A stretch of DNA of 40,413 nt from a virus (Duplodnaviria; Caudoviricetes): the IMG/VR virus record IMGVR_UViG_3300012953_000004, positions 1 to 40,413 of that record; one strand, given 5' to 3'. Shown piece after piece: positions 14,987 through 40,413 of this stretch; position 1 is the first letter of the stretch, and each line of letters opens with the position of its first letter. The notes under the pieces were generated by a model that did no database searches, was not told the origin of the DNA, and was given only the letters and a program-made list of their open reading frames with translations. Both the position numbers and the translations under genes were made by a program.

Positions 14987-15655
14987 TTACGCTGTCCCAC
15001 GATCTAAATACTTTCCTATAACGTTATCACCAAATTCAGCGTATTTAGGTATTTGACGCAGCCACCAATCAAAAGTAAACGTATCATCAACTTCTTCAAC
15101 AAATTCTGGCACAAATGCGTATTTGCGCATTTGATTTGCTAGCGCTAACGCCATTACACGGTCATCATAAGGCGAACCAGACATTTGACCCCTGTCATTT
15201 CGTGTATATGTCCTTAACTCAGCAATCGTGTTCTTATCATACAACGTTAACTCATAGTTTTTAAGAGCCATGCCTAAATCATCAATCATCAACGGTTTAG
15301 AAGTACGTGTAGTTTTCCACCCATATTCTTGAGTAATTCTTTGGTCAACCTGATTTAACGACCTTTTTCTAAAAAGATTCGGATAACCAATCTGTCTAAG
15401 CTGAGTAATAGTCGTAAGGCCATGATTGTTTGCTTCAACACAGCACAAAGCATCCCCATACCACAACCCAATTTTTAAAACTTCATGCGCTAGTTCATCT
15501 GGCGGTATGCGCCCATGCCATATCGCCACCTGTTCCCCTGTGCGCACATCTAAAACCTGCACACACGAATAATCACCATGCTTTAAACCCTCAGCAGTAT
15601 CTACTCCTAAAACGTATCCGCTAAAATTTTTTGGGTTTTGCCAAACAGTTAACAT
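14987..15655 (-). CDS. terL: Terminase large subunit, nuclease (RNase H-like) domain
   Basis: YVLGVDTAEG, VEANNHG, YDDRVMALALA; own ATG with GGAG SD. Confidence 0.88.
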   Translation of the reverse strand: MLTVWQNPKNFSGYVLGVDTAEGLKHGDYSCVQVLDVRTGEQVAIWHGRIPPDELAHEVLKIGLWYGDALCCVEANNHGLTTITQLRQIGYPNLFRKRSLNQVDQRITQEYGWKTTRTSKPLMIDDLGMALKNYELTLYDKNTIAELRTYTRNDRGQMSGSPYDDRVMALALANQMRKYAFVPEFVEEVDDTFTFDWWLRQIPKYAEFGDNVIGKYLDRGTA

Positions 15656-16536
15656 CTAAACTCCACAACTCTCGGATGCGGCTCATGCAAATGGCCTTCT
15701 CGGCCAGCTCTAACATGATGCTCAATAGATTCCAAAGCGTCAAGATCAAATACAGGGTTACCAGAGCGAACAAATGCCTCTTCAGGGGAAGTTGGGTATT
15801 CTTGTGCAAGTTGCCAAGGCAACATAGCGTCTTTTTTACCTTCATACCACGAATCATCTCTATCCTCAGATGCAGACCAAGGAAAAAACATAGAATCAAA
15901 GTTATTATTGCCAGTTACCGCACCTGTCCATAGATTGTGGAAAAAGTTACCCGAACCGTTTGCTGTAGAAAGTCCAATAATACGACCCCCCACATCAGCA
16001 ACAGGCTCAATAGAGGCCCAAGCCTCCTCTGGGTTAGGTAAAAACGCCCACTCATCCACAACAATAAGTGTTGCAGACTCTCCACGAGCAGGATCAGAAG
16101 CGGAAGGCATACTAGTAATCTGCGAACCGTTAGAAAACCCCATTCTTTGCTGGTGCTCAATTTCCGATTTAGGACCACGTTCAACCATCCACTTTGGCAA
16201 ATGCTTAAATCCATACTTAGTTTTCCTTAACAACAAGACCGCCTCACGTTCAGTACGTGAAAGGTCAATAATATTTTGGTCATCATGGAAATATGCCAAC
16301 CAGAACTGATGAGCAGCTACTAACGTAGTCCAACCTATCTGCCTAGCTTTGAGTGTTAGCGAATATCTTTCATCTCGCCATCTGTTAAGAGCTTCTTTTT
16401 GAGCCTCACGTAATCCAAAAAGTATGCGACCATGAGCAGGGTGAGCAATGCTCCAATAGTTTTGAAGAAAATACTCCTCGCTCTTGACACAGTTCCTCCA
16501 CTCGGCTTCTTGACGAAGCTCCGTAATACGAGCCAC
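15649..16536 (-). CDS. terL: Terminase large subunit, ATPase domain
   Basis: LKARQIGWTT (Walker A), LIVVDEWAF (Walker B), LSTANG coupling motif, QEYPTSPEEAF. Confidence 0.92.
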   Translation of the reverse strand: MARITELRQEAEWRNCVKSEEYFLQNYWSIAHPAHGRILFGLREAQKEALNRWRDERYSLTLKARQIGWTTLVAAHQFWLAYFHDDQNIIDLSRTEREAVLLLRKTKYGFKHLPKWMVERGPKSEIEHQQRMGFSNGSQITSMPSASDPARGESATLIVVDEWAFLPNPEEAWASIEPVADVGGRIIGLSTANGSGNFFHNLWTGAVTGNNNFDSMFFPWSASEDRDDSWYEGKKDAMLPWQLAQEYPTSPEEAFVRSGNPVFDLDALESIEHHVRAGREGHLHEPHPRVVEFRC

Positions 16537-17153: not shown

Positions 17154-17530
17154 CTTTGCACAATAGGTACTAAGTACTTAGAACAAAATTTCGTTTACCT
17201 CAGTAAAAAGAAATTTTGGTACTGGGTAGTTTCATATCGCTAACAGCACTTTGTGATAGCCAGAGCTTCTAAAAACCAAACGGAACGGATATGGATTAAT
17301 AATTATTATAGGAAACAAGGTACGGGGGGGGCCGTAGGGGTGCATCGCCAGTCCCTGTGCATAATGCGCACCGACTGGTCAGTCTTCTCACGCCAATTCC
17401 TTCGCACAAGAAGAAAACTAGTCCTGACCTGCTGTTATATCTCCTCCAGTCCTGCAGTTATGTGGGGGGATCTGCGCAGGTAACCGTGCTGCTGGAGAGA
17501 GCTGAACCCCATCTAGTCTGGTCAAAAACT

Positions 17531-17854: not shown

Positions 17855-17898
17855 GAAAGGTGTGCATGGTGATAGTATCACTGTGCGCACCTTTTTTT
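17855..17898 (+). terminator. Rho-independent terminator
   Basis: AAAGGTGTGCATGGTGAT-AGT-ATCACTGTGCGCACCTTT followed by a T-tract. Confidence 0.85.
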
Positions 17899-17972
17899 GT
17901 GTCCTGTGACCTGTATGCGTAGCACCTTGAAAAGGTGGAGAAAAGGGGTCGCTAACAGGACGAGAGGAAACC

Positions 17973-18028
17973 ATGCTACTACGTTAAGTAGTAGTGAATT
18001 ACCCCTTCTTAATTGAAGGGGATAATTC
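17973..18028 (+). promoter_or_regulatory. Tandem hairpins upstream of the second early gene
   Basis: CTACTAC-GTTAA-GTAGTAG then GAATTA-CCCCTTC-TTAATT-GAAGGGG-A-TAATTC. Confidence 0.6.
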
Positions 18029-18059
18029 CCTTACACAACAACGACTGGGAGGTCGGCAA

Positions 18060-18492: not shown

Positions 18493-18549
18493 GTTGAGGC
18501 TGATACGCTTGCATCATGGGGGTGGTGTAGGCGTATTGGCCCTTCAAAT
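18493..18549 (+). terminator. 19-bp G-U-rich RNA stem-loop (terminator or processing site)
   Basis: GCTGATACGCTTGCATCAT-GGGG-GTGGTGTAGGCGTATTGGC directly after the stop codon. Confidence 0.65.
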
Positions 18550-18559
18550 TGGTTCAGGT

Positions 18560-18602
18560 TATAGTTTATTAACTTGAATTAATGAAAGTTAATAAACATA
18601 TA
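18560..18602 (+). promoter_or_regulatory. Bulged-A hairpin with TATAGT at its 5' base
   Basis: TATA-GTTTATTAACTT-GAATTAATGA-AAGTTAATAAAC-A-TATA. Confidence 0.65.
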
Positions 18603-18622
18603 GATGACTGGGAGGTCAGAAC

Positions 18623-19063: not shown

Positions 19064-19085
19064 TTAGACTGGGAGGTCTACACAC

Positions 19086-19455: not shown

Positions 19456-19486
19456 GGTTTACCCCTCTTTATTGAGGGGATAAACC
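19456..19486 (+). promoter_or_regulatory. Bulged-A hairpin
   Basis: GGTTTA-CCCCTC-TTTATT-GAGGGG-A-TAAACC. Confidence 0.6.
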
Positions 19487-20052: not shown

Positions 20053-20070
20053 GTGACCATAGGAGGTCAA

Positions 20071-20289: not shown

Positions 20290-20364
20290 GGGCCTCGTGT
20301 GAGGCCCTACTACAGGGTGCATATGTAACGTCCCCCATGTGCATCCTGTAGTGGGTAAACCACT
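20290..20364 (+). other. Multi-hairpin structured intergenic RNA element
   Basis: GGGCCTC/GAGGCCC hairpin; 20-bp stem 20306-20325/20336-20355; alternative AGTGG/CCACT hairpin. Confidence 0.6.
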
Positions 20365-20382
20365 AAAATACTGGGAGGTATT

Positions 20383-21469: not shown

Positions 21470-21507
21470 TAATTATTACTGAATTAATGAAGTAATAATT
21501 ATATATA
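21465..21507 (+). promoter_or_regulatory. Bulged-A hairpin with TATAAT at its 5' base
   Basis: TATA-ATAATTATTACT-GAATTAATGA-AGTAATAATTAT-A-TATA. Confidence 0.65.
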
Positions 21508-21523
21508 GAACTGGGAGGTTCAA

Positions 21524-22114: not shown

Positions 22115-22146
22115 ATATACAACAATGACCAGAGGAGGTCACAATT

Positions 22147-23151
22147 ATGACATGGGCTAAAGATTTCATGTTTAACAAAGGAGATGACGACACGCCAACA
22201 GCGTCCGTCATGCTCAAAGCACAACAGGTAGGGGCAGATTTTGATGTCACCTATTTACCAGCAGGTTTCCTGAAACAAGCTGTAACGTGGCAAGAACCAG
22301 AGTTCACGGTTCCTGTCTACGACTCAGGCGAGTATGAAGGTAAACCTAAACAAATGTACATTGTCCGTGATGACACTAATGAGGTGGTAGGTCAACACTC
22401 ATCCAAGTACCCAAAGCGTGATGCGTACCATCACAACTTTCAGGTCTTGGAGAATGCGTTCCCTAATTCTTGCGAGAATGTCCAAGTTTGGGATAATGGA
22501 GGCTTATGCCTTGTTACACAACGCATAGGTGATGAGGTTGAATTGCCTATGGGAGATGAAGTTGTCCAATACGTTTACAGCGTTATGTCCTTGAATGGAA
22601 CCAAACGCACAATGACCATACCCAAAGCAAGCAGGGTTTCCTGCACAAATGCGCTGGGTTTAACGTTGGCTATTATCTCGTCAAAGGCTACTCGTAACCA
22701 TGACGCTAGAATTTCATTCCAAGCTGAAGTGTTTGAGAAATCAGAGATTCAGTTAGATGCGCTAGTGAGAATGGCTAAAGTCTTTACTAGTAAAAACTTT
22801 ACAGATCAGGAGTTCTCACGTTTAGTGGACAACCTGTTAGAAGTTCCTGATAAAGATGCCAGCACTAGAGCTGTCAATACGTACCAACGTACTCGTAACA
22901 GTATGTTCACTACATGGCGGAAAGAATGCCAAGAGTATAACGACCAAAACATGTGGCTTGCATACAACGCAGTCCAAGGTGCGGAACAGCATCGTGTAAA
23001 CGCCAACTTTAAAGCCGAGGACGACAAGGGCTATGAAGCTGGTCAAAAGAAATCCATCTTTAACGCTCTTGAAGGTGGTACACCCCTAGCTGAATCTTGC
23101 GAAAAATATTTGCGAGCAGAGCTAGATGCGCCAGAAAAGGCGCTAGTATAG
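22147..23151 (+). CDS. DUF932 (LGT_TIGR03299-like) protein
   Basis: IVRDDTNEVVG..SSKY, SLNGT, RVSCTNAL, TRNH, NMWLAYNAVQGAEQH. Confidence 0.8.
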   Translation: MTWAKDFMFNKGDDDTPTASVMLKAQQVGADFDVTYLPAGFLKQAVTWQEPEFTVPVYDSGEYEGKPKQMYIVRDDTNEVVGQHSSKYPKRDAYHHNFQVLENAFPNSCENVQVWDNGGLCLVTQRIGDEVELPMGDEVVQYVYSVMSLNGTKRTMTIPKASRVSCTNALGLTLAIISSKATRNHDARISFQAEVFEKSEIQLDALVRMAKVFTSKNFTDQEFSRLVDNLLEVPDKDASTRAVNTYQRTRNSMFTTWRKECQEYNDQNMWLAYNAVQGAEQHRVNANFKAEDDKGYEAGQKKSIFNALEGGTPLAESCEKYLRAELDAPEKALV

Positions 23152-23153
23152 GT

Positions 23154-23241
23154 GGAGGTCTAGGTGGGACTGCCGTCCATGACACGAAAGTGTAGTGAAT
23201 GACCTCCCTCTCTGATGGCAGTTCCACCTCTCTAACGAGAG
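23154..23241 (+). ncRNA. Putative structured RNA (16-bp stem, GNRA hairpin, anti-SD loop, possible pseudoknot)
   Basis: 23162-23177 pairs with 23214-23229; ACAC-GAAA-GTGT; GACCTCC 23201-23207 complements GGAGGTC 23154-23160. Confidence 0.5.
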
Positions 23242-23247
23242 GGAATT

Positions 23248-23610
23248 ATGATAGTAATAAACACGGACGGTGCGTTTGATGTCGTGCCGTATAACGATGG
23301 CGTTCTTGTAAGGACCCATCACACAGAGTGTCTGCGAAAAATGATGACACGAATACATGGCAAGAAATGGGTGTATGCCCACCTTGCTGATCACATTAAA
23401 CACACACCCAAAACAAGGTGGAAATGGCGAATGACTCTCCATACTCACGATTGGACTGGGTATCTAGGTAAATGCACTCGTGCTATGGACTATGACTTTC
23501 TGTACGACAAAATGATCACAGAGGAAGACATAACTACTACGAAATTGCATGGAATAGCAGGTGTTTACACACACATGAAGAAAGGGTGGTCCCATGTTAA
23601 ACAAGTATGA
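23248..23610 (+). CDS. Hypothetical protein (120 aa)
   Basis: GAGGG SD; VINTDGAF..VLVRT..HTP..WR..MDYDF pattern. Confidence 0.7.
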   Translation: MIVINTDGAFDVVPYNDGVLVRTHHTECLRKMMTRIHGKKWVYAHLADHIKHTPKTRWKWRMTLHTHDWTGYLGKCTRAMDYDFLYDKMITEEDITTTKLHGIAGVYTHMKKGWSHVKQV

Positions 23611-24063: not shown

Positions 24064-24120
24064 AGTTATACTAGTACTTAGTACATAATCACCCTTTAGG
24101 GGGTGATTATGATACTAAGT
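24052..24120 (+). promoter_or_regulatory. Putative replication-module promoter GTCACACCC-N6-TATACT plus bulged-A hairpin
   Basis: ACTTAGTA-CATAATCACCC-TTTAGG-GGGTGATTATG-A-TACTAAGT at 24076-24120. Confidence 0.6.
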
Positions 24121-24143
24121 AACTACTGGAGGTATTGTTAGCG

Positions 24144-30431: not shown

Positions 30432-33400
30432 CTAATTGTTGTTATGAATAGCATCCAACAACTGTAAGCGGTTAGCATCAGTTACTTTTTGCCTATTTTC
30501 GTAATATCTTCCTACTTCAGCTTGTTCTATTTCATAAGGACTAAGTGTTCTTAATCCTATTCCAAAGAACCAACTCATTATATTGGAAAAATGCCTTTGC
30601 TGGTATTTCTCCTCAGTAGGAGCTACCCTACGCAAATCGCTAATAGGAGGCGTTACTTGTGTTAAAAAGTGCAACCATTTAGATTTTACAGCATAACCAC
30701 CGTTAGGTAAAGGCTTTGCAACACCTTGTGTTTCTAACATTGGCATCAGTAACGGAACTTTCTCCAACCAGAAAGGCACATGTTCGTATCTGTCTTTAAA
30801 TGAATAGTCTTTCCAAATGTTCCTATTCATCATCAACTCCAAAGGAGCTTTGACTAATGGGGTCATCATTGACGCTCCAGAGCGCAATGTGGCCCCTGCT
30901 GCGCCTAATACATCACCTTGAGCTAATTCGCTAACAGGATCGTTAATCATGTCAAAAGTAGAACGAATAGGAAGATCTGGCATAAAGAAAACAGGGTTTC
31001 CTTGCACATCCATACTTGCAGGCAATCGCACACCGCCCTGTCTTAGCATCCAGTCAGGAACAGGGCCGACATCCCTATCTTCCTTGTCAGATAACGCACG
31101 CATTGTTAATGCGTATCTATGAAATTTAGCTGGCTGTTGAAAATATTGTCCAATAGTTAAAGGAATAGCGTGACGTGACCACGTATAAAACGGAATTAAT
31201 CTTTTAACTTTCCGCTCAGTTTGACTTAAATCAGAATAATCAAAATGCCATTTAACTATGTTATCCCAAGCGTCATCTACAGTTCCACCAGAATTTAACG
31301 TGTGCAACCCTAAAGATCCTCTTACTACATCTTCTACAGTAGCGTTAGCGCCTCTAAATTTTTTAAGACCAATAAATTGAGAACTAAAAGGCATTGATGC
31401 TCGTATGTTCCAGTCTCTTCCCCTCCATCGTTTAACAGTCTCTATTTCCCTGTTTCCAATTTTTATTGATCGTTTAGAATCAGGAATAAATTCTTGCCCA
31501 TAAAAACCAGACCCTTCTTTACCTACTAAACCACCGTCCATCATTACACGAACTGCGTTAATGTCTTTAGGATTAGTCTTTTTGCGTGCTGCATCAGCCA
31601 ATTGCTGTGCGTCACGCAATACACGCCTACGTAATTTAGGTTTAGAAGCTCCAAATATAGCTGCATCAGCTATTTCGTCTTGATATTTTAAATACTTAAA
31701 GGCGTTTAAAAATTGGCTATAAGCGCTTACAGGAACATCAGCTAAATAATTCATCCATAACGCTCCGTAAAAGTTTCTAGCCAAGAAGCCTGCTTTTAAA
31801 ATCATGTAACCTTTTGTAACGTTATGAACGTTGTCGTAATACTGAACAAGAGTCTTGGGAGGTTTACCTGTAGTTTCTAACCCAAGTTTTGTCGTACCCA
31901 TTATTGTTTCAGTTATTCCTTCTCTAGTGGAATTAGCTAAACCAACTGGGTTCTTAGCAGCATCATGTGCATAAATTAATGATGTGAAAAGACGTTCTTT
32001 CGTCTTTTCACTCATTTCTGAGTAATTAGGTACAAATAACTGGTCTACATCTGGTTTAGGATTATTCAAAGTCTTAAGAACATAGTCAATTTCATCTAAG
32101 TCATTAATTCCTATTTGCTTTAAAGAAGCTGAAAAATCTAAAAGATTTTCCAAGCTTCCTATCGCTAACAAGTCATCTTCAGCAATACCATCTACCATGT
32201 TCTTTAATTTGTTTCTGGCATCAACGTGAAGCTGTAAGCGTTGAGTAACAAAATCTAGCGCTTGTTTCTCTTGAAGAATACGCAATTCCACATCTTCTAA
32301 CTCTTTTGCTAAACCTGTTATTTCAATATCTTCATCAGGCATCCACTTTCTCAACTTTTCAACATCTTTAGACAATTGCGTGTCATAAGGCCTAGAAGTT
32401 CTTATCTTATGCAAATCGCCTAAAGCTTTAAGTCTGTCCATGTAATGAGCTTGCAAATTCTCCATATTGTACTTAATTTGCTTAGACTCATTAATGCTTT
32501 CAAAAACGTCTTTCTTTAACAGACTGTAGTTTTCTCGGCCAATATCGTAAGCAGCTTGATCTTTAACATCAAGCGCTTGGGCCAACCCTTTTCTTTCTAC
32601 CAATTTACCTTTAGGTCTTCCACCTTTAATAAACATAGGGAAAATGTTTCCTCTGCCAGAAGCTTGTAAAGCTTCATAAGCAGCTTTTTCAGTAACACTT
32701 GCGCCTTTAAAATCAAGAGTTGGATTATTTAAAAAGTTTCTTACTTGCTCATCGTAACGTTTAATAAGTGATTCTCGTGTAGGTATTTTACTTGCAACAA
32801 TTTCGTCAATAAGCTCTTGCTCGTCAGCGTTCCACCATTTTTTCCACTTTTCATCAAGTACAGGATTGTCGTTAAAAGCATAAATCTTTTGATCTGTGTA
32901 AAGTTCATCAAACCCTGCAACTACATGATGGTTGTCAGATGGCTTAGGAATACCTGTAGCTCCTTCTTCAAGCTCAGTTGAAAAATCTTGCCTGATAGCT
33001 CTACGAGGAACATCTGGATCACGTTCTAACACTTTAAACCTATTAACATACGTTTCTGCATCAACTTCACGCAAAGTACCTTCAGCTATTAACTGCTTCA
33101 CAGTGTCGTCACCACCCCTGAACGTATCTGCTAAACCTTTAGCCGTATAAACTCTTGTAACTAAACCAGTACGCATTTGCTCATTTGACGCTGCCAAAAA
33201 ATGATGCACGTCTATAGCAGCATTAATCTGTTGTTGCGCCCTTTGAGCAGCCCATTCAGGATCAACAACAATCGCATTAGGATTAGTAATCGTGTAATCC
33301 ATTGTAAATGGAGCCTGAACAGTGCCTTTACGAGCTTGTTCTACTGGGTCCGCCATAGCGTCCCAAGTTTCATTCTCAAGCTGAGAAGCCTGCCTACTGC

Positions 33401-36400
33401 TCATTCTTCTATTAATACCTTCTACGTCAAGCCCTATAGTTTCCTGTTGAGCGACAATGTAAGCGTCATCTATTACGTCATCTTGATCACCGTATCTACC
33501 TGCAACTTCTCGCATTTCCCTTTCAGTACTACGGCTGTATTGAGCTTGATCCCTGTAACCCCCAGACCTAAGTTTAGACCTAACGTTTCTAACGTTTGAA
33601 TTAAAGCTTTGATCATACGTAGCTTGACCGTGCATCCTAGGTTGAGAAACACCTATATACCCATCATTAGCTAAAGACATTTTCCAATCGTCTATCATCC
33701 TCTTAGCTAAAAGGCTGTCAGCGCCCTCAACGTTAGCAAACAATTGCATTACCCTATTTACGTGAACATAAGATTGCATCTTAGCTTTAAGAATTTCATC
33801 CTTAAAATGAGGATTAGATGGGCTTGTCGCATACGCATACTCACCCAAATCGTCCATAAAATTATTAAACCGATCACCGTCTCTAGTCAAATAGCCATTA
33901 ACTGCGTCTATTTGCCTGTATTTGTTATCTCTCCAAGAAAGAAACTCAAGTACTTCTTGGAAGGTTCCACCTTCATTAAAGTAATTTGCCATAATAGGAT
34001 CAGTTTTAATAGCAGCTCTTATAGAGCGAACACGACCCATTGTTCTTACAGAAGTAATCGTATCCCTTCTAGTTGCTGCAGTCATAGTATCAACTACGCT
34101 AGGAACACTACTCCCTTCAGAAACTCTGTAAATGTCGTTTAGAATTACTTTACCTTCACCTGTTGCAGGGGAAATACCTGCAGGAGTAACCTGAACAACT
34201 TCAGTAGCAGGTTGTGGCAATCCTAAATCTGCGTCTTGTAACTCTAAACTCCCTTTGTATTTGTTAGCAAGCAACAACTCCATCTCTTTAGCTTGTTTAG
34301 CTGTTAAAGCGTCCTTAGTAACTACTCGTATTATTTCATCCATGACAAGCGGATCTTGTCTTCCTAAAATATCTACCATTCGTTCGCCCAAAGAAATCAT
34401 GTCTTGTGGCATAAGTTTGGTAGGTCCTTCCCAGCCAACCAAACGAAGTATTTGATCAGTAAACTGACTCAAATCATCACCCTTAAGGCCAGCAGGGTTA
34501 GCAGGACTAAGCTCAGTCCAAAATCTGTACAAACCTTCTTCGTAACCATTAAAACTAATAAGGGATGTATCGCCCATAGTTCTAGCTTCTGCATCTAGCT
34601 TAAGTAAAGTTGCCATAATTTCTTCAGGTTCTTTAACTTGAAGAACAGGATCAACACCATAAAACCTTATTTCTCCCATGTTTGTATCAACAGCTAGACC
34701 TTGATACTTAACCCCTTCCCTGTAAGCGTAAGGCGCTAACGTCATCCTAGACTTACCCCCAAATGGGCTTTGCTGATGGCCCATGACATCAGAAAGGCCC
34801 AAAGGTTTAGCAATTGTGTCATCGTAGCCACCTGAATTATCCAAAAGTCTAAGAAGACCAGTTTTACCTTCTGTTGCCCACGTATCTAAAACAACTTTGG
34901 TTGGCAAAACGTTAGAAGCAAACTGCTTCAGCATTTCGTCTTCGTCTGTCAAATAAGGTAACCCAAAATATTCAGATAAATATTTTGTTCTAACTTCCAA
35001 GAAATGCGCTAGTTCATCTAATGTTTTTGCATCTAAATCAGGAACAGCGTTCTCTAAATAATTTTTCCAACCTCCCACAGAGTTACGCACATGCAACATT
35101 CGTTCTACTTGCTGATTCATTGAATCAGGCATAAACCCACTAGGTAATTTTCTAGCAATATCTTCAGGAATATTATTAGGAAAGTACAAACTTTCATCTA
35201 TAGCCCCATACATTTTAGGACCTAAACCTAATTCCATAACTTCTGTAATGTCGTAATTAACGCCTACAACTTCCCTTGGCTGTCCACTAGCTCTAGTTGG
35301 AGTAAGCGGATCTCCTTGCCTTGCAAGGTCATCTACGCCTTCAAAAACTTTATTTAGCTCTTCTGCTAAATCATCTTTGACTCGCATTATTTGAGCTTCC
35401 ATGTCTTTAGGTTTTAATTCTTCTAGTTTCGCAATCTTTCTTTGCGCACGCCTAGAAGCAAACCCAGCAGTCCGCCATTGCGTGTATTGAGTGCCAAATA
35501 TTTTGTCACCTTTACCAAATCCTTTAGTCTCAAGCCATTCCTGAGTTAAAGAATTCTTGCGTTCTTTAATTTCTATTTTGCTAGGTTTCCTAGCTTGACG
35601 CTCTACTACAGTTCCATCTAATTGCGTGTAACTTACCCTATCTCGTGGAGTAATCTCCTTTACACCTTTAGGCGTTTTAGGACGTTTAGGTTCAACAGTA
35701 GGGCGAGGCCTAGGTGGCTCTAACGGTGGAGGAGAATCTACAGGCACAAAACTAACATTGTCTATTACGCTTGCGTTAATAGAATCCACCATTGCATCAA
35801 ATTCCATAGGGTGCGTATCTACGACATCAGCAGCATAATGATACAACCCAGTTTCTTTAGTTAATTGTTCCGCTAAATCATTTGCTGCCTGTTGACGGAT
35901 TTGATCATCCGTCATATCCCAAGCAGCATTAGTAGCCACAGTAGACTTACCACTGTTAGCTTCCCAATTTTTAAATTCAATGTCGTATTTTTCCCAAGCT
36001 TTACGATCTTGATTGTAAGCGGTTACTTCTTTGTTGTATTGAATCATTTCAGCTTCATACACTTGTTGCACTTTGGCATCAGGATCTGCAAGAGACTCAG
36101 GTGTGCTTTTGCTAACTATAATGTTATTTTGATCATCCACAGAAACAGTAGTTGGTTGCTTTTCAACCAACTGCAGTCTTCCGTCAACATATTCTAAAGC
36201 TTTATAGGGTTGTCCATCAGGAAGATGTTTTTCAGTTCCTTTAGAAGTAAAGAAAGCATCATCCATTCCATACCTAACAGTCCTAAATCTACCAAACCTT
36301 TCAGCTTGATTACCCCAAGCATCAAGAGCACTAGGTCTACCAGTTGTAGGGTTTACCTCTCCCCACAAAATACCGTAATTTCTAGCAGAACCTGTTCCAT

Positions 36401-39400
36401 TAACTGACCAATTTCCCAACAAAACATCAGCTATAAAATCGTCAGACATCTTAAGAACTTGTGGTTCAACTTTTACTCCCCAAAAACTAAATGCCATTTG
36501 AGTCAAATCTTGGTTTGTTTCAACAAAATTAGGATCAAACACAGACAAACCATCATCTTCACCATAAACAGGCTTAGGGTAACCTGCCTGTTGCGTTGCT
36601 CTAGGATCAACAGGCGCACGACCACGACTAGCTCTTTGAGGACCAGCTTCACCGCCAACAGTATACGGCTTTATACTTTCATTAATTTTCATAACAGAAT
36701 AAGCAGTACCACGTTGAACTCTGGCTTCCATGCGAGGCACAGCAACACCCAAAATTTCGTAAACCTTTTGAGCAGCTAACTGCTCATCTCTTTCACGAAA
36801 ATTCTTTTTCTTTCCCTGCGGAGTTGCATTGTCATGCTGCGAAAACGATCTTACATAATACGTTTCACCGTCAGCGCCCTTGTAAAAACCATCCAAAAGA
36901 TCAGAACCCTTTGGAGCAACAGGAAAAGCTTCACTTCCCTGAAAACCAATAACTTCTGGTTCTATTCTCATTTCTGGATTTAAAATATCTAAATCAATAC
37001 CAAATTTTTTAAAAGGAACAGGGCTTTGCACGCCTTGTTCCATTGCTTCCCCAAACTTTTTAGCATAACGTTCTACTCTAGCGATTTCTTCCATTGTTAC
37101 AGGAATGCCATCAAGTTCAACTTTCATGTATTCCTCTAGCTTTGCAAAAGGATTTCTTGACAATTCTTCCTGAACTGAAGCAAAACGCCTATCTACCGCT
37201 TCCCTGTATTTCCCTATCTTTAACGCCAAATCAGAAGCACTTTCAATAGTCGCTAAAGATTCTTTCCCCATCAACAAATAATATTGCCTTATGGCATTGC
37301 CTAATTCTCTGCTAAGTTCAGGATTTGCAATAACTTTTGCTTGCTCGTCTATACCATTGTGCATGTGTGACTTAATTAAGTTTCGCCATTGCTCAACATT
37401 TTCTACAGTAGGAACACCAAACTGGGCAATAGGACCTTGGTCTTCTAAATCGCTAAACTTTTTAGCTATTTGATCTAATTCATCCATTAAAGATGAAATT
37501 TCCATATCCATTGTTTCCAATGTTTTAAGCATTGACGCAGGCAAATTAGCAGGATTTTCTTTTACAATTGCATCGTGATGGCTTATTTGAAACCATTGAC
37601 CCATGCCTTCATCAAACCTAAGCATTTCAGTATCAAAATATTGACTAATTTCTTTAAAAGTCATTTCTGACCCATCAGACAAAACAACCGTTTTAGGTCC
37701 AATTATTTGAGAAATACTTCCATCAGGCATAAGCCTGTAAGAAACACCACCGTCATTAAGAACTTTAACAGCTTGATGAGGTGTCATAAAAGTTCTAACT
37801 TTTGCAGGAGATGGTTCAGGACCCATTCTAGCAAGCACGTCTTCATCAGGTCTTGCAGCCCCCATAGGAGTAACTAGTTCATCTTCTCCTGATATTTGGC
37901 CACGTTCTTCAAAGTTTCTCTTTAGGTAATCTTCAATTTGTTCACCTTCTCGTTGCCCCTGATGTCGTTTAGCGTTAGAGTTTTCCCACCTTTGTCTTTG
38001 ATGCTTAATAGTGTTTTCAATCTCTAATGTCTGAATATCTGTTAGTTCTTCAGCAGTAATTTTTTGCTGAGGAGCGACATCATCTGTAACTGCAGAAACT
38101 TGCTCTAAAGCTTGCTCTCGTTCAAGAGGCGTAACATCTTTTCCTGTTAGCGGATCACGGAAAGCAGGCTCATCTAAAGCTTGCGCTCTTTGAGGCGGAG
38201 CATCAGGGAACGTCATTCGTGCTATATCGTCTTCCCACCTTCGCAAAGTTAATTCTATAACTTTGCGATCTACCATTTGACCAATTCCTTGAGAACCAGC
38301 TACTCCTTGCACTTCTTGATAACCAAGTTTATTAAAAGCAGTTATCGCAGACATTGCATCAGGAAGATCTTGTTCAACTTGCCTCATAATAACTGGCAAC
38401 AATTCTTCTGAAGTCATGTGATGCCAATTGGGCATTTGCAAAAGCTCAGGCATAAATTCGTGTGCTTTAGCAGCATCTAAACCTCGTGTAATTTCAAGAA
38501 GTTTATTAACTTCAGTAGAAACACGCACTTTTGCTTGTAAATAGCTTTCATACATGCTTGCAACATTAGGAATGTTCCCAGCATCGTCAGCAAACTCTTC
38601 CCAATTTATGCTGCGCATAAACATTTCTAATTCACGTTTAAGGTCTTGACGTATTGCTCTTAACGCAGGATCAGTAATTTGTGACGGATCAATTTCTGCA
38701 TCTATACCTTTAATTACTCGTATAATGTCATCTGCAGTTGTTTGCCATATTTCTCTACCAACGCTGTCGTTCCAAATAGTATTTAACGTAGACAACTCTA
38801 AATCTACATCGTCACCAAAAACACCCATATTCGTCATACGATGAGCTTCATAATTTCTATTTGTTTGTATTACTTCAGCAATCGCTTGAGTGTATTTATT
38901 AGCAGCATCTTTGGCTCGTTCTACGCTTCCAAATTTTTCAATAAGGTGTTGTTCTATTTTTGCTTTAGTTTGTACACCGTTACTTAATGATTCGTACAGA
39001 TAATAATAAACGTTATCCGTTATATCCTCTCCACCAATCATCAACTTTTGGAGCACCTCTTGAAGCTCTTGAATTTCCACATTCGCTTCTATCGCTTTTT
39101 GGAACTGAGGAAATTCTTCAATTGATATTTCTCCAGCTTTAAATTTTTCAATGTCAAACATGAACTGTTCTTGTTCATCCATAACTTGCATTAACTTGTT
39201 AAACAATTCATCTGTTTTATCAACAGACTCTCCGTACATTTGTTCACGCCTATTAAGTAATTGCTCACGATCCATTGCACGAGATAATTCTGTTTCATAT
39301 TCATCAAGCAACTTAGCGTGTTGATTTTCCAAATTTACAATAGTTTCATCCATCAAACGTTTTTGAGCTAGTTCAGCTTCCGCAGACCGAATAATTGCTT

Positions 39401-40413
39401 CATCTATTTCAACTTCTTTTTTCTTAATTGTTTGAACCATGCGAGTTAAACGCCTGCTTGCTGCAACCGAAGCAGCAGAAGGCATCTTTAAACCAGTTAC
39501 CCAACCAGTAGCATTAGGCGACCATCCACCCTTAATAACTCTCTGATTTAACCAATTCATTCCAATCAACTGAGAAACACCTTGGTTGTAGTTGTCTAAA
39601 ACTTTTTGCATATTAAAGCTAAAGAACTCACCATTCATGCCTAAATTTTCTAGAATCTCAGACATTTGCTCAGGGATAGTTCCATACGCTCTACCGCTTA
39701 TTGGGTTTAGCTGTCCAACGTTTCCTAATTCTTCTCCAAAGAAAGTGGTCCTAGGAGAACTAGATGAGTTGGCAAATTGTTTGCGAAAATTTTGCATTTG
39801 CGCATCAGTAGGAGGAATAACCTTTCCTTGTGGATTACGCACAGGTGTGTAATTGTCAGCAAACCATTTTTCAAATTCTGTTTCAAATTCTTTAGGCTCA
39901 ACATAAAAACGTCTTTGCTCAGGGCCTACAGTCCTGCCTTTTTGTTTACTTACAATGGCTGCTTTCCACTCATCAGTTAATTGATGAGGGAAATAGCCTG
40001 CTCTTTTGGCAAGAAAATCTGTTTGTGCCATGCTGTTTGCCATTAAGCGCAAACTCTCCATCAAGGTTGCTCCTTGGCCAACAAGGTCAACGCCAGTTTT
40101 TAACGCAACTTGTTCCATAACTTCTATAGCTGCTTGATCGCCTTCTATCGCTGACATTAAAAGACGTTGAAAAGCTTCACTGTCATTTAATGCGTAAGCA
40201 GTAGGGAAATCCCCCAAAAGAACACCATTTTCAGTTTTCCACGCATTAAGAATAGGTTTTATGTTTCCTAACTCATTATTAACGACTCCTCTAACTTTGT
40301 TTAAAAACAAATTAGTAGGTTTGTCTAATTCTTTACGAGCACGCATTGTAAGCATTCTTGCTTGCCCATTCCAACTAAATAGTTCTTTAGCAGCAATAAC
40401 TTCCCAAGGGTTA
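30432..40413 (-). CDS. Giant putative ejection/polyvalent virion protein, C-terminal part (true start at 1892 via the junction)
   Basis: Open frame to the contig end; C-terminal WHFDYSDLS..ER..KRLIPFYTWSR...PDW...PDLP resembles the tail of large polyvalent/ejection proteins. Confidence 0.85.
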   Translation of the reverse strand, partial: NPWEVIAAKELFSWNGQARMLTMRARKELDKPTNLFLNKVRGVVNNELGNIKPILNAWKTENGVLLGDFPTAYALNDSEAFQRLLMSAIEGDQAAIEVMEQVALKTGVDLVGQGATLMESLRLMANSMAQTDFLAKRAGYFPHQLTDEWKAAIVSKQKGRTVGPEQRRFYVEPKEFETEFEKWFADNYTPVRNPQGKVIPPTDAQMQNFRKQFANSSSSPRTTFFGEELGNVGQLNPISGRAYGTIPEQMSEILENLGMNGEFFSFNMQKVLDNYNQGVSQLIGMNWLNQRVIKGGWSPNATGWVTGLKMPSAASVAASRRLTRMVQTIKKKEVEIDEAIIRSAEAELAQKRLMDETIVNLENQHAKLLDEYETELSRAMDREQLLNRREQMYGESVDKTDELFNKLMQVMDEQEQFMFDIEKFKAGEISIEEFPQFQKAIEANVEIQELQEVLQKLMIGGEDITDNVYYYLYESLSNGVQTKAKIEQHLIEKFGSVERAKDAANKYTQAIAEVIQTNRNYEAHRMTNMGVFGDDVDLELSTLNTIWNDSVGREIWQTTADDIIRVIKGIDAEIDPSQITDPALRAIRQDLKRELEMFMRSINWEEFADDAGNIPNVASMYESYLQAKVRVSTEVNKLLEITRGLDAAKAHEFMPELLQMPNWHHMTSEELLPVIMRQVEQDLPDAMSAITAFNKLGYQEVQGVAGSQGIGQMVDRKVIELTLRRWEDDIARMTFPDAPPQRAQALDEPAFRDPLTGKDVTPLEREQALEQVSAVTDDVAPQQKITAEELTDIQTLEIENTIKHQRQRWENSNAKRHQGQREGEQIEDYLKRNFEERGQISGEDELVTPMGAARPDEDVLARMGPEPSPAKVRTFMTPHQAVKVLNDGGVSYRLMPDGSISQIIGPKTVVLSDGSEMTFKEISQYFDTEMLRFDEGMGQWFQISHHDAIVKENPANLPASMLKTLETMDMEISSLMDELDQIAKKFSDLEDQGPIAQFGVPTVENVEQWRNLIKSHMHNGIDEQAKVIANPELSRELGNAIRQYYLLMGKESLATIESASDLALKIGKYREAVDRRFASVQEELSRNPFAKLEEYMKVELDGIPVTMEEIARVERYAKKFGEAMEQGVQSPVPFKKFGIDLDILNPEMRIEPEVIGFQGSEAFPVAPKGSDLLDGFYKGADGETYYVRSFSQHDNATPQGKKKNFRERDEQLAAQKVYEILGVAVPRMEARVQRGTAYSVMKINESIKPYTVGGEAGPQRASRGRAPVDPRATQQAGYPKPVYGEDDGLSVFDPNFVETNQDLTQMAFSFWGVKVEPQVLKMSDDFIADVLLGNWSVNGTGSARNYGILWGEVNPTTGRPSALDAWGNQAERFGRFRTVRYGMDDAFFTSKGTEKHLPDGQPYKALEYVDGRLQLVEKQPTTVSVDDQNNIIVSKSTPESLADPDAKVQQVYEAEMIQYNKEVTAYNQDRKAWEKYDIEFKNWEANSGKSTVATNAAWDMTDDQIRQQAANDLAEQLTKETGLYHYAADVVDTHPMEFDAMVDSINASVIDNVSFVPVDSPPPLEPPRPRPTVEPKRPKTPKGVKEITPRDRVSYTQLDGTVVERQARKPSKIEIKERKNSLTQEWLETKGFGKGDKIFGTQYTQWRTAGFASRRAQRKIAKLEELKPKDMEAQIMRVKDDLAEELNKVFEGVDDLARQGDPLTPTRASGQPREVVGVNYDITEVMELGLGPKMYGAIDESLYFPNNIPEDIARKLPSGFMPDSMNQQVERMLHVRNSVGGWKNYLENAVPDLDAKTLDELAHFLEVRTKYLSEYFGLPYLTDEDEMLKQFASNVLPTKVVLDTWATEGKTGLLRLLDNSGGYDDTIAKPLGLSDVMGHQQSPFGGKSRMTLAPYAYREGVKYQGLAVDTNMGEIRFYGVDPVLQVKEPEEIMATLLKLDAEARTMGDTSLISFNGYEEGLYRFWTELSPANPAGLKGDDLSQFTDQILRLVGWEGPTKLMPQDMISLGERMVDILGRQDPLVMDEIIRVVTKDALTAKQAKEMELLLANKYKGSLELQDADLGLPQPATEVVQVTPAGISPATGEGKVILNDIYRVSEGSSVPSVVDTMTAATRRDTITSVRTMGRVRSIRAAIKTDPIMANYFNEGGTFQEVLEFLSWRDNKYRQIDAVNGYLTRDGDRFNNFMDDLGEYAYATSPSNPHFKDEILKAKMQSYVHVNRVMQLFANVEGADSLLAKRMIDDWKMSLANDGYIGVSQPRMHGQATYDQSFNSNVRNVRSKLRSGGYRDQAQYSRSTEREMREVAGRYGDQDDVIDDAYIVAQQETIGLDVEGINRRMSSRQASQLENETWDAMADPVEQARKGTVQAPFTMDYTITNPNAIVVDPEWAAQRAQQQINAAIDVHHFLAASNEQMRTGLVTRVYTAKGLADTFRGGDDTVKQLIAEGTLREVDAETYVNRFKVLERDPDVPRRAIRQDFSTELEEGATGIPKPSDNHHVVAGFDELYTDQKIYAFNDNPVLDEKWKKWWNADEQELIDEIVASKIPTRESLIKRYDEQVRNFLNNPTLDFKGASVTEKAAYEALQASGRGNIFPMFIKGGRPKGKLVERKGLAQALDVKDQAAYDIGRENYSLLKKDVFESINESKQIKYNMENLQAHYMDRLKALGDLHKIRTSRPYDTQLSKDVEKLRKWMPDEDIEITGLAKELEDVELRILQEKQALDFVTQRLQLHVDARNKLKNMVDGIAEDDLLAIGSLENLLDFSASLKQIGINDLDEIDYVLKTLNNPKPDVDQLFVPNYSEMSEKTKERLFTSLIYAHDAAKNPVGLANSTREGITETIMGTTKLGLETTGKPPKTLVQYYDNVHNVTKGYMILKAGFLARNFYGALWMNYLADVPVSAYSQFLNAFKYLKYQDEIADAAIFGASKPKLRRRVLRDAQQLADAARKKTNPKDINAVRVMMDGGLVGKEGSGFYGQEFIPDSKRSIKIGNREIETVKRWRGRDWNIRASMPFSSQFIGLKKFRGANATVEDVVRGSLGLHTLNSGGTVDDAWDNIVKWHFDYSDLSQTERKVKRLIPFYTWSRHAIPLTIGQYFQQPAKFHRYALTMRALSDKEDRDVGPVPDWMLRQGGVRLPASMDVQGNPVFFMPDLPIRSTFDMINDPVSELAQGDVLGAAGATLRSGASMMTPLVKAPLELMMNRNIWKDYSFKDRYEHVPFWLEKVPLLMPMLETQGVAKPLPNGGYAVKSKWLHFLTQVTPPISDLRRVAPTEEKYQQRHFSNIMSWFFGIGLRTLSPYEIEQAEVGRYYENRQKVTDANRLQLLDAIHNNN
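40291..40413. repeat. Terminal direct repeat, copy 2
   Basis: Identical to 1-123. Confidence 0.95.

Follow-up and report, generated by a model that had tools for sequence, protein, structure and literature searches.

Immediately downstream of a DUF932 gene, in its 3' UTR, the phage genome analyzed here encodes a long hairpin whose open loop carries the anti-Shine–Dalgarno (anti-SD) core ACCUCC, and the ribosome-binding sites (RBSs) of several genes upstream of it form small hairpins displaying the complementary GGAGGU. From comparative sequence evidence, we put at roughly 50% the probability that this element yields a 3' UTR-derived anti-SD hairpin RNA, i.e., a base-pairing regulator that would lower the translational output of presumed early genes of the same phage. 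What has been demonstrated of this explanation is a co-varying fold with a conserved loop, along with the matching upstream hairpin GGAGGU sites.

The window, i.e., the whole stretch of DNA that was analyzed, comprises an entire phage record of 40,413 bp, complete with direct terminal repeats. Its minus strand encodes terminase, an SU10-like portal, capsid and tail proteins, an amidase that also has a peptidoglycan-binding domain, and, at 30432–40355, an ORF of 3,307 aa with no Pfam or PHROG match; the large terminase consists of two overlapping minus-strand ORFs (14987–16536), a 295-aa ATPase part and a 222-aa nuclease part. Between 17.6 and 29.7 kb, the plus strand carries small genes of unknown function, DUF932, and then exonuclease, DnaB-like helicase, primase, and RusA. 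Throughout, "early" denotes the stretch of plus-strand genes that leads up to and includes DUF932, a designation taken from gene order only. The endolysin, whose best full-length matches are to Streptomyces and Thermobifida phages (28–29%), weakly suggests a Gram-positive, probably actinobacterial host. Capsid matches were mixed, several relatives come from marine-labelled contigs, and one 28% match in a Flavobacteriaceae-labelled MAG contig was taken as uninformative about the host. A WhiB search returned nothing in five genomes, and the window contains no tRNA or tmRNA. Among the relatives, ARAGORN called a tmRNA in L031 (3011–3334), L037 has a similar 3' end, and L045 carries right after its DUF932 hairpin (~2705–2800) a short tmRNA-end-like element without coding part, which was not called by ARAGORN.

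Several other repeats punctuate these genomes. The palindrome GTAC-TNA-GTAC occurs in the window at 17167–17177, 24074–24084, and ~24110–24120, and is conserved across subclades (L157:6347–6394, L165:10741–10788, L172:6373–6419, L113:7904–7951 and 1405, L110:8380 and 1412, L159:14018), often paired ~36 bp apart before the exonuclease gene and once before the small terminase gene; it is likely an operator or promoter for a middle/late switch. Long intergenic hairpins are also found at 17855–17900, ending in a terminator-like T run, at 18505–18540, at 20306–20355, with a CCCC-rich loop, and at 24066–24123.

The element and its immediate neighbors are arranged as follows:
22147–23151, plus strand: DUF932 gene, 334 aa (PF06067, E 1.5e-10), with the hairpin in its 3' UTR
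23154–23160, plus strand: 5' GGAGGUC, subgroup-specific, predicted to pair with the loop in nascent RNA or to extend P1 below a bulge
23162–23229, plus strand: candidate anti-SD hairpin RNA, with a 16-bp closing helix P1 (23162–23177 with 23214–23229)
23178–23197, plus strand: inner side hairpin with a GAAA loop, a variable accessory part
23198–23213, plus strand: open loop with UGACCUCCC, the predicted targeting seed (core ACCUCC at 23202–23207, unpaired in the fold)
23228–23243, plus strand: weak hairpin over the GAGAGGG RBS of the next gene
23248–23610, plus strand: next gene, 120 aa, no family

Both the 16-bp stem and the ACAC-GAAA-GTGT hairpin reported in an earlier, sequence-only reading of this DNA are present in the sequence and in the predicted fold. 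P1 begins 10 nt past the DUF932 stop codon, contains two G-U pairs, and encloses the inner hairpin (ACAC-GAAA-GTGT at 23182–23193, stacked on three further pairs) together with a 16-nt open loop, in which TGACCTCCC (23200–23208) is predicted to be unpaired at an opening cost of 0.5 kcal/mol. The folding energy of 23153–23229 is −33.2 kcal/mol (z −3.65), which 1 of 200 shuffles equaled. In the 95–98% relatives, the inner hairpin has a GCAA loop and one broken lower pair. The CTCTC-TAAC-GAGAG hairpin proposed just downstream (23228–23241) does exist, but two of its bases are common with the long stem. An Rfam search, which the same reading had suggested, matched no family: Rfam 15 gave no match at gathering thresholds across the whole window, and none even at E 10 for 23050–23350. 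Three sequencing runs of unspecified kind (contigs) contain the element DNA, with no variant inside it. The AlphaFold model of DUF932 was confident (pLDDT 90.5), yet it had no clear match among solved folds: no PDB entry matched by sequence, Foldseek gave nothing at E 0.001, and the best Z of 6.5 lay within background, an outcome that neither shows nor excludes RNA binding.

We next evaluated conservation across DUF932 relatives. Searches yielded 137 loci with a profile match, of which 104 were left after removing duplicates and loci without 80 nt past the stop codon, and a tree built from the 69 loci scoring >290 splits 26 rows from 43 sister rows (support 98/100). ACCUCC is found ≤80 nt after the DUF932 stop in 23 of the 26 clade rows (22 of 25 for relatives alone, as L106 is the window's own copy) versus 1 of 43 sister-clade rows; the background rate is 109 in 11,572 windows. 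The loop, on whose conservation the initial proposal depended, is hence largely kept. The core is predicted to be open (mean unpaired probability ≥0.65) in 22 of these 23 rows, and the single sister-clade occurrence is paired, not open. Closing helices start 0–18 nt past the stop and span 9–21 bp, and because they sum to 90 G-U pairs across the 23 rows, the RNA was assigned to the plus strand.

Stem pairing is maintained despite sequence change. In subgroups C and D, 98% of 198 cells are paired, compared to 29–53% in slid controls, with changes on both sides in 6 of 22 pairs. The window's subgroup A has 84 of 84 cells paired (14 columns, 6 rows) and four columns changed on both sides; these pairs were counted from the helix end since MAFFT misaligned the A3 3' arm, and the bulged L113 was excluded. 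While GACCUCCCUC is invariant in all seven subgroup-A rows, the invariant part of the loop across all subgroups is ACCUCC only, and the side hairpin precedes the core in A, follows it in C/D, and is absent in B/E. Taken together, these patterns point to a conserved structure in a plus-strand RNA, with the unpaired and conserved C-rich seed and the co-varying stems expected of a trans-acting C-rich-loop sRNA.

Exceptions within the clade include L026, which sits on a long branch with unsure placement, L045, in which the helix is kept and the loop carries CCUCC only, and L024, in which RBS hairpins are present but the element was not found in the available 24-kb fragment. A model of subgroups C/D does not recover the window's copy, and cross-subgroup homology therefore rests on position and loop core. 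Loci were flagged with a stricter loop scanner, a looser version having given many false flags. An exact 15-nt loop scan of viral contigs returned 18 loci, including 3 DUF932 relatives, and the remaining 15 look like chance. The degenerate C/D loop scan returned 20 (9 with DUF932 upstream, 10 unrelated, and L201, where the hairpin sits at a contig end), and a B-type loop pattern only 3, all already known. In subgroups B, D, and E, a second GC-rich hairpin lies just 3' of the element (L025, L033, L036, L043, L044, L028–L040) and may mark the 3' end of the RNA. Separately, a phage outside the clade carries a 14–19-bp helix with a ACCUCCCC loop (L099:11790–11840) at the 5' end of a helicase ORF, 2.9 kb downstream of DUF932, which is possibly a relocated or independent element.

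The putative targets of the loop lie in the early block. As originally noted, the loop is perfectly complementary to early RBSs, through two 8-nt words found at five plus-strand places, all of them RBSs (GGGAGGTC at 18047, 18610, and 19071; GGAGGTCA at 18611, 20062, and 22134, the last of which the sequence-only reading had placed at 22135). No further 8-nt complement of the loop words exists on either strand of the window, the element itself excepted. Any strong SD will by itself give a 6-nt ACCUCC/GGAGGU match, so that information resides only in the conservation of the open loop and in the flanking bases. Overlooked in the sequence-only reading, the GGAGGU sites are themselves small hairpins with GGA in the loop:
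18042–18055, plus strand: CGACU-GGGA-GGUCG, predicted target
18605–18618, plus strand: UGACU-GGGA-GGUCA, best predicted target (9 bp, net −12.7 kcal/mol)
19065–19080, plus strand: UAGACU-GGGA-GGUCUA, predicted target (net −12.7 kcal/mol)
20054–20069, plus strand: UGACC-AUAGGA-GGUCA, predicted target
20367–20382, plus strand: AAUACU-GGGA-GGUAUU, predicted target (7 bp)
21508–21521, plus strand: GAACU-GGGA-GGUUC, predicted target
22126–22141, plus strand: UGACC-AGAGGA-GGUCA, RBS of DUF932 itself, predicted target (feedback)

The arms of these RBS hairpins co-vary (GAC/GUC, UAC/GUA, AAC/GUU, CAC/GUG). A survey of 11 genomes or fragments found stems of at least 5 bp at 27 of 37 upstream GGAGGU sites, versus 8.2 expected when 5' flanks are swapped (p 0.0002), and at 6 of 20 GGAGG sites lacking the U. 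Downstream, in the replication block, 8 of 15 GGAGGU sites are also hairpins. Among DUF932 loci, hairpin sites number 52 of 88 in clade A (19 expected; 288 kb) and 4 of 22 in clade B (1.8 expected; 424 kb), a contrast between clades that amounts to one evolutionary event. GGAGG precedes 95 of 276 same-strand versus 11 of 173 opposite-strand genes in the 11 genomes (crude gene caller) and none of 19 minus-strand genes in a hand list for the window, suggesting that structural genes largely lack it; among 18 minus-strand genes, 3 can form a 6-bp helix with the loop, none via GGAGG. Pairing is short (7–9 bp) and opening the RBS hairpins costs 4–8 kcal/mol, after which the seven clear early sites retain a net predicted binding energy of −8 to −13 kcal/mol. 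Two AT-rich palindromes centered on TGAATTAATGAA (18565–18600 and 21470–21500) lie just upstream of hairpin RBSs, and two related palindromes of the form ACCCCT...AGGGGATAA (18001–18025 and 19460–19485) lie upstream of early genes.

Loop and sites were then compared between subclades. Directly 5' of ACCUCC, the loop has G, U, C, or A depending on the row, and in four of five subclades this neighbor is matched by the base 3' of GGAGGU (C at 17 of 27 sites in A, A at 7 of 11 in B, C at 5 of 8 in C, and G at 1 of 1 in E, which thus rests on one site). Subclade D is discordant, as 0 of 15 sites have C although five of its six loops call for it. Assigning loops to their own sites gave better pairing energies than any other assignment (exact p 0.008 with 5 subclades, i.e., five units only, in which kin share composition). 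Ten non-independent groups gave p 0.007, and the co-variation test lost significance when only the best single target was scored (p 0.11). Overall, this tracking lends modest support to a predicted anti-SD pairing.

Under the anti-SD explanation, the hairpin would share a transcript with DUF932, where the presumed early block ends. Because a promoter and terminator scan found none at the element, and no U-tailed terminator flanks it, a discrete RNA of 40–75 nt would have to arise by processing. Its long helix would shield both RNA ends and allow the molecule to build up over time. The CC-rich loop would first contact (kiss) the GGA loop of an RBS hairpin and then displace the 5' arm of that hairpin, forming 7–9 bp over the whole SD with no chaperone. 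Loading of the 30S subunit would thereby be blocked on 7–8 early genes, DUF932 included, and structural genes, mostly without GGAGG, would escape. The net result would be an RNA-only counterpart of the T4 RegB early shut-off. Counted against this explanation are the discordance of subclade D, the absence of the element in L024, and the reduced CCUCC loop of L045, together with the short pairing, the cost of opening the RBS hairpins, and the occurrence of hairpin sites downstream.

Among the alternatives, we regard as unlikely a scenario in which the helix is a processing or stability hairpin, giving the DUF932 message a nuclease site or barrier, with ACCUCC serving as decoy for a 16S 3'-tail-binding protein and a separate CsrA- or RegB-type protein reading the RBS hairpins. 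CsrA-type sites present GGA in a hairpin loop over the SD, which the RBS hairpins resemble; such hairpins also occur without the element (L024 and the mycobacteriophage SirPhilip), and other long intergenic hairpins are found in the same block. A 16S mimic, however, would be expected to keep C 5' of ACCUCC, and this base instead varies and tracks the RBSs in four of five subclades. No phage-encoded CsrA was found in the five genomes searched, although a host copy may exist, and no RegB-like gene is annotated in the window.

It also appears rather improbable that the loop acts in cis only, pairing with an SD on the same transcript, either that of DUF932 (5'–3' feedback) or that of the next gene (translational coupling). 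Subgroups A, B, and C, with 14 rows between them, all have a DUF932 RBS that matches the loop flank, and CCCTCTC of the window (23206–23212) can alternatively pair with the next gene's GAGAGGG over 8 bp, a possibility missed in the sequence-only reading. Yet in D, E, and F the DUF932 RBS is GGAGAA, GGAGGA, or GGAGGC, with no GGAGGU, and ACCUCC is nonetheless kept, while the SD of the following gene mostly reads GGAGG with no U and that gene itself differs between subgroups, which together argue against a purely cis partner.

We find it improbable that the loop serves host shut-off, binding exposed SDs of host mRNAs while hairpins protect the phage's own messages. Such a role would account for an invariant loop part limited to the universal anti-SD core, for the energetic cost of opening the RBS hairpins, and for the avoidance of GGAGG by structural genes. 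Protection, however, predicts loop flanks that avoid the phage's own sites, whereas these match in four of five subclades, and net energies on own sites are still favorable.

Finally, a pseudoknotted cis-switch or small ribozyme built on GGAGGUC (23154–23160), the other function initially proposed, is very improbable because the 5' pseudoknot is a trait of the window's subgroup only. Equally improbable is leader-peptide control by a 12-codon ORF (23164–23202) that has no conserved frame, length, or start. The 7-bp complementarity of GGAGGTC to the loop is real, a leader–loop partner of 4–8 bp occurs in 7 of 7 subgroup-A rows, all of which keep AGGUY, and folding predictions for nascent RNA have the leader pair with the loop before P1 is complete, so that this pairing may be a transient fold. 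Outside subgroup A, the partner is found in only 2 of 16 rows (4 and 5 bp) and, judging from these rows, is not a defining feature of the element family. The inner hairpin switches side or vanishes between subgroups, which counts against a cis-switch or ribozyme, and a 1–2-nt linker would need to span a 15-bp helix. HDV-like, hammerhead, twister, and pistol ribozymes were rejected given the lack of any Rfam match and the 14 of 16 non-A rows without 5' partner.

A parallel to the proposed anti-SD RNA and its tagged RBSs exists in cluster K mycobacteriophages, whose start-associated sequences (SAS) are described as an RBS motif of 13 bp, symmetrical at its ends, that precedes non-structural genes only, with one reversed copy away from a gene start in four genomes (PMC3203893); that source, in the part available to us, leaves open whether RNA or protein binds the SAS. 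A similar RBS motif is described for Microbacterium cluster EF phages (PMC7302621). In Anaya, we found that the reversed copy (59,870) forms the loop of an intergenic sense-strand hairpin, in a stretch with homologues in 128 phage records, from phages that can be propagated on a laboratory host. This arrangement holds in five of seven homologues checked: Anaya, plus Adephagia, Shaobing, Mdavu, and Ageofdapage, which keep the loop on varying stems. Amgine has a degenerate loop that still pairs over 11 bp (−20.1 kcal/mol), and SirPhilip has lost the loop though the SAS is present. The right arms of Pixie and TM4 likewise carry SAS and no reversed copy in a loop, and RBS hairpins can thus exist alone, which also counts against the anti-SD explanation. 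As in cluster K, the window repeats its RBS motif at non-structural gene starts in one orientation and holds a single reversed copy away from a gene start (GACCTCC, whose only plus-strand occurrence is at 23201). Unlike the fixed cluster K 13-mer, the RBS arms of the window vary and co-vary, and the fixed 13-bp consensus with upstream 17-bp inverted repeats (extended SAS, ESAS) is not seen, although palindromes precede some window sites; those centered on TGAATTAATGAA are a possible counterpart of the extended repeats. The cluster K hairpin, which the available part of PMC3203893 does not describe, is not adjacent to DUF932, and the likeness observed is one of design. As far as sequence comparison goes, a loop-plus-tagged-RBS design recurs in cluster K but is not obligatory.

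More tentatively, phages of Gram-positive hosts might share a two-part, RNA-only regulon that has arisen more than once, in which an anti-SD hairpin accumulating from the end of the early transcript would act as a timer silencing hairpin-SD-tagged genes; this would also explain the cluster K SAS and their reversed copy. If true, a matched anti-SD RNA and hairpin-tagged RBSs would constitute a chaperone-free RNA route to early shut-off, so far known in phage translation from proteins such as T4 RegB, and a compact tool to silence gene sets. A question open since 2011, namely the role of the cluster K SAS and the reason for the reversed copy, becomes directly testable.

RsaE and RoxS have C-rich loops that pair with G-rich RBSs, and RegB is specific for GGAG. 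The predicted element belongs to none of the cuckoo, 6C, and RegB systems. In the 6C (B11) sRNA of Actinomycetota, a C-rich loop pairs with a G-rich RBS, often itself looped, without Hfq (PMC6486639), and RNAIII pairs similarly, as cited in PMC4615179. Unlike the element, 6C, RNAIII, and RsaE/RoxS are independent chromosomal sRNAs with two or more loops, and no sequence match to them was seen. The element would work as a C-rich-loop sRNA like the cuckoo sRNAs (PMC4615179), but Cuckoo/CcsR/ar14 RNAs of Alphaproteobacteria are described as two to four adjacent hairpins of 24–50 nt with CCUCCUCCC (PMC4615179, PMC8034643), whereas the element is a single long, ACCUCC-bearing helix from a phage that has structured putative targets of its own. 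Membership in this family was rejected, the loop being GACCUCCCUC rather than CCUCCUCCC, with one motif-bearing hairpin per locus and no Rfam match. A precedent exists in CcaF1/CcsR, where a DUF protein matures anti-SD RNAs that derive from the 3' UTR of its own message (PMC8034643). The predicted outcome resembles that of T4 RegB, by which SD-marked early messages are silenced together (PMC9697503), RegB being, unlike the element, a protein nuclease. The c4 antisense RNA of phages P1/P7 pairs through its loops with an RBS of the phage, but it has one target operon, long specific complementarity, and a link to lysogeny (PMC12197685). The available part of this phage sRNA review contains no comparable case, and we found no description of the element or of an anti-SAS RNA in the literature; an unnamed listing may exist in the alignments of Fremin et al. 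(PMC10690425), whose tables, in the portion available, include candidates upstream of DUF932 genes. The new finding, based on the sequences compared, is that the putative targets are themselves structured and, in four of five subclades, matched at the flanking base to the anti-SD loop.
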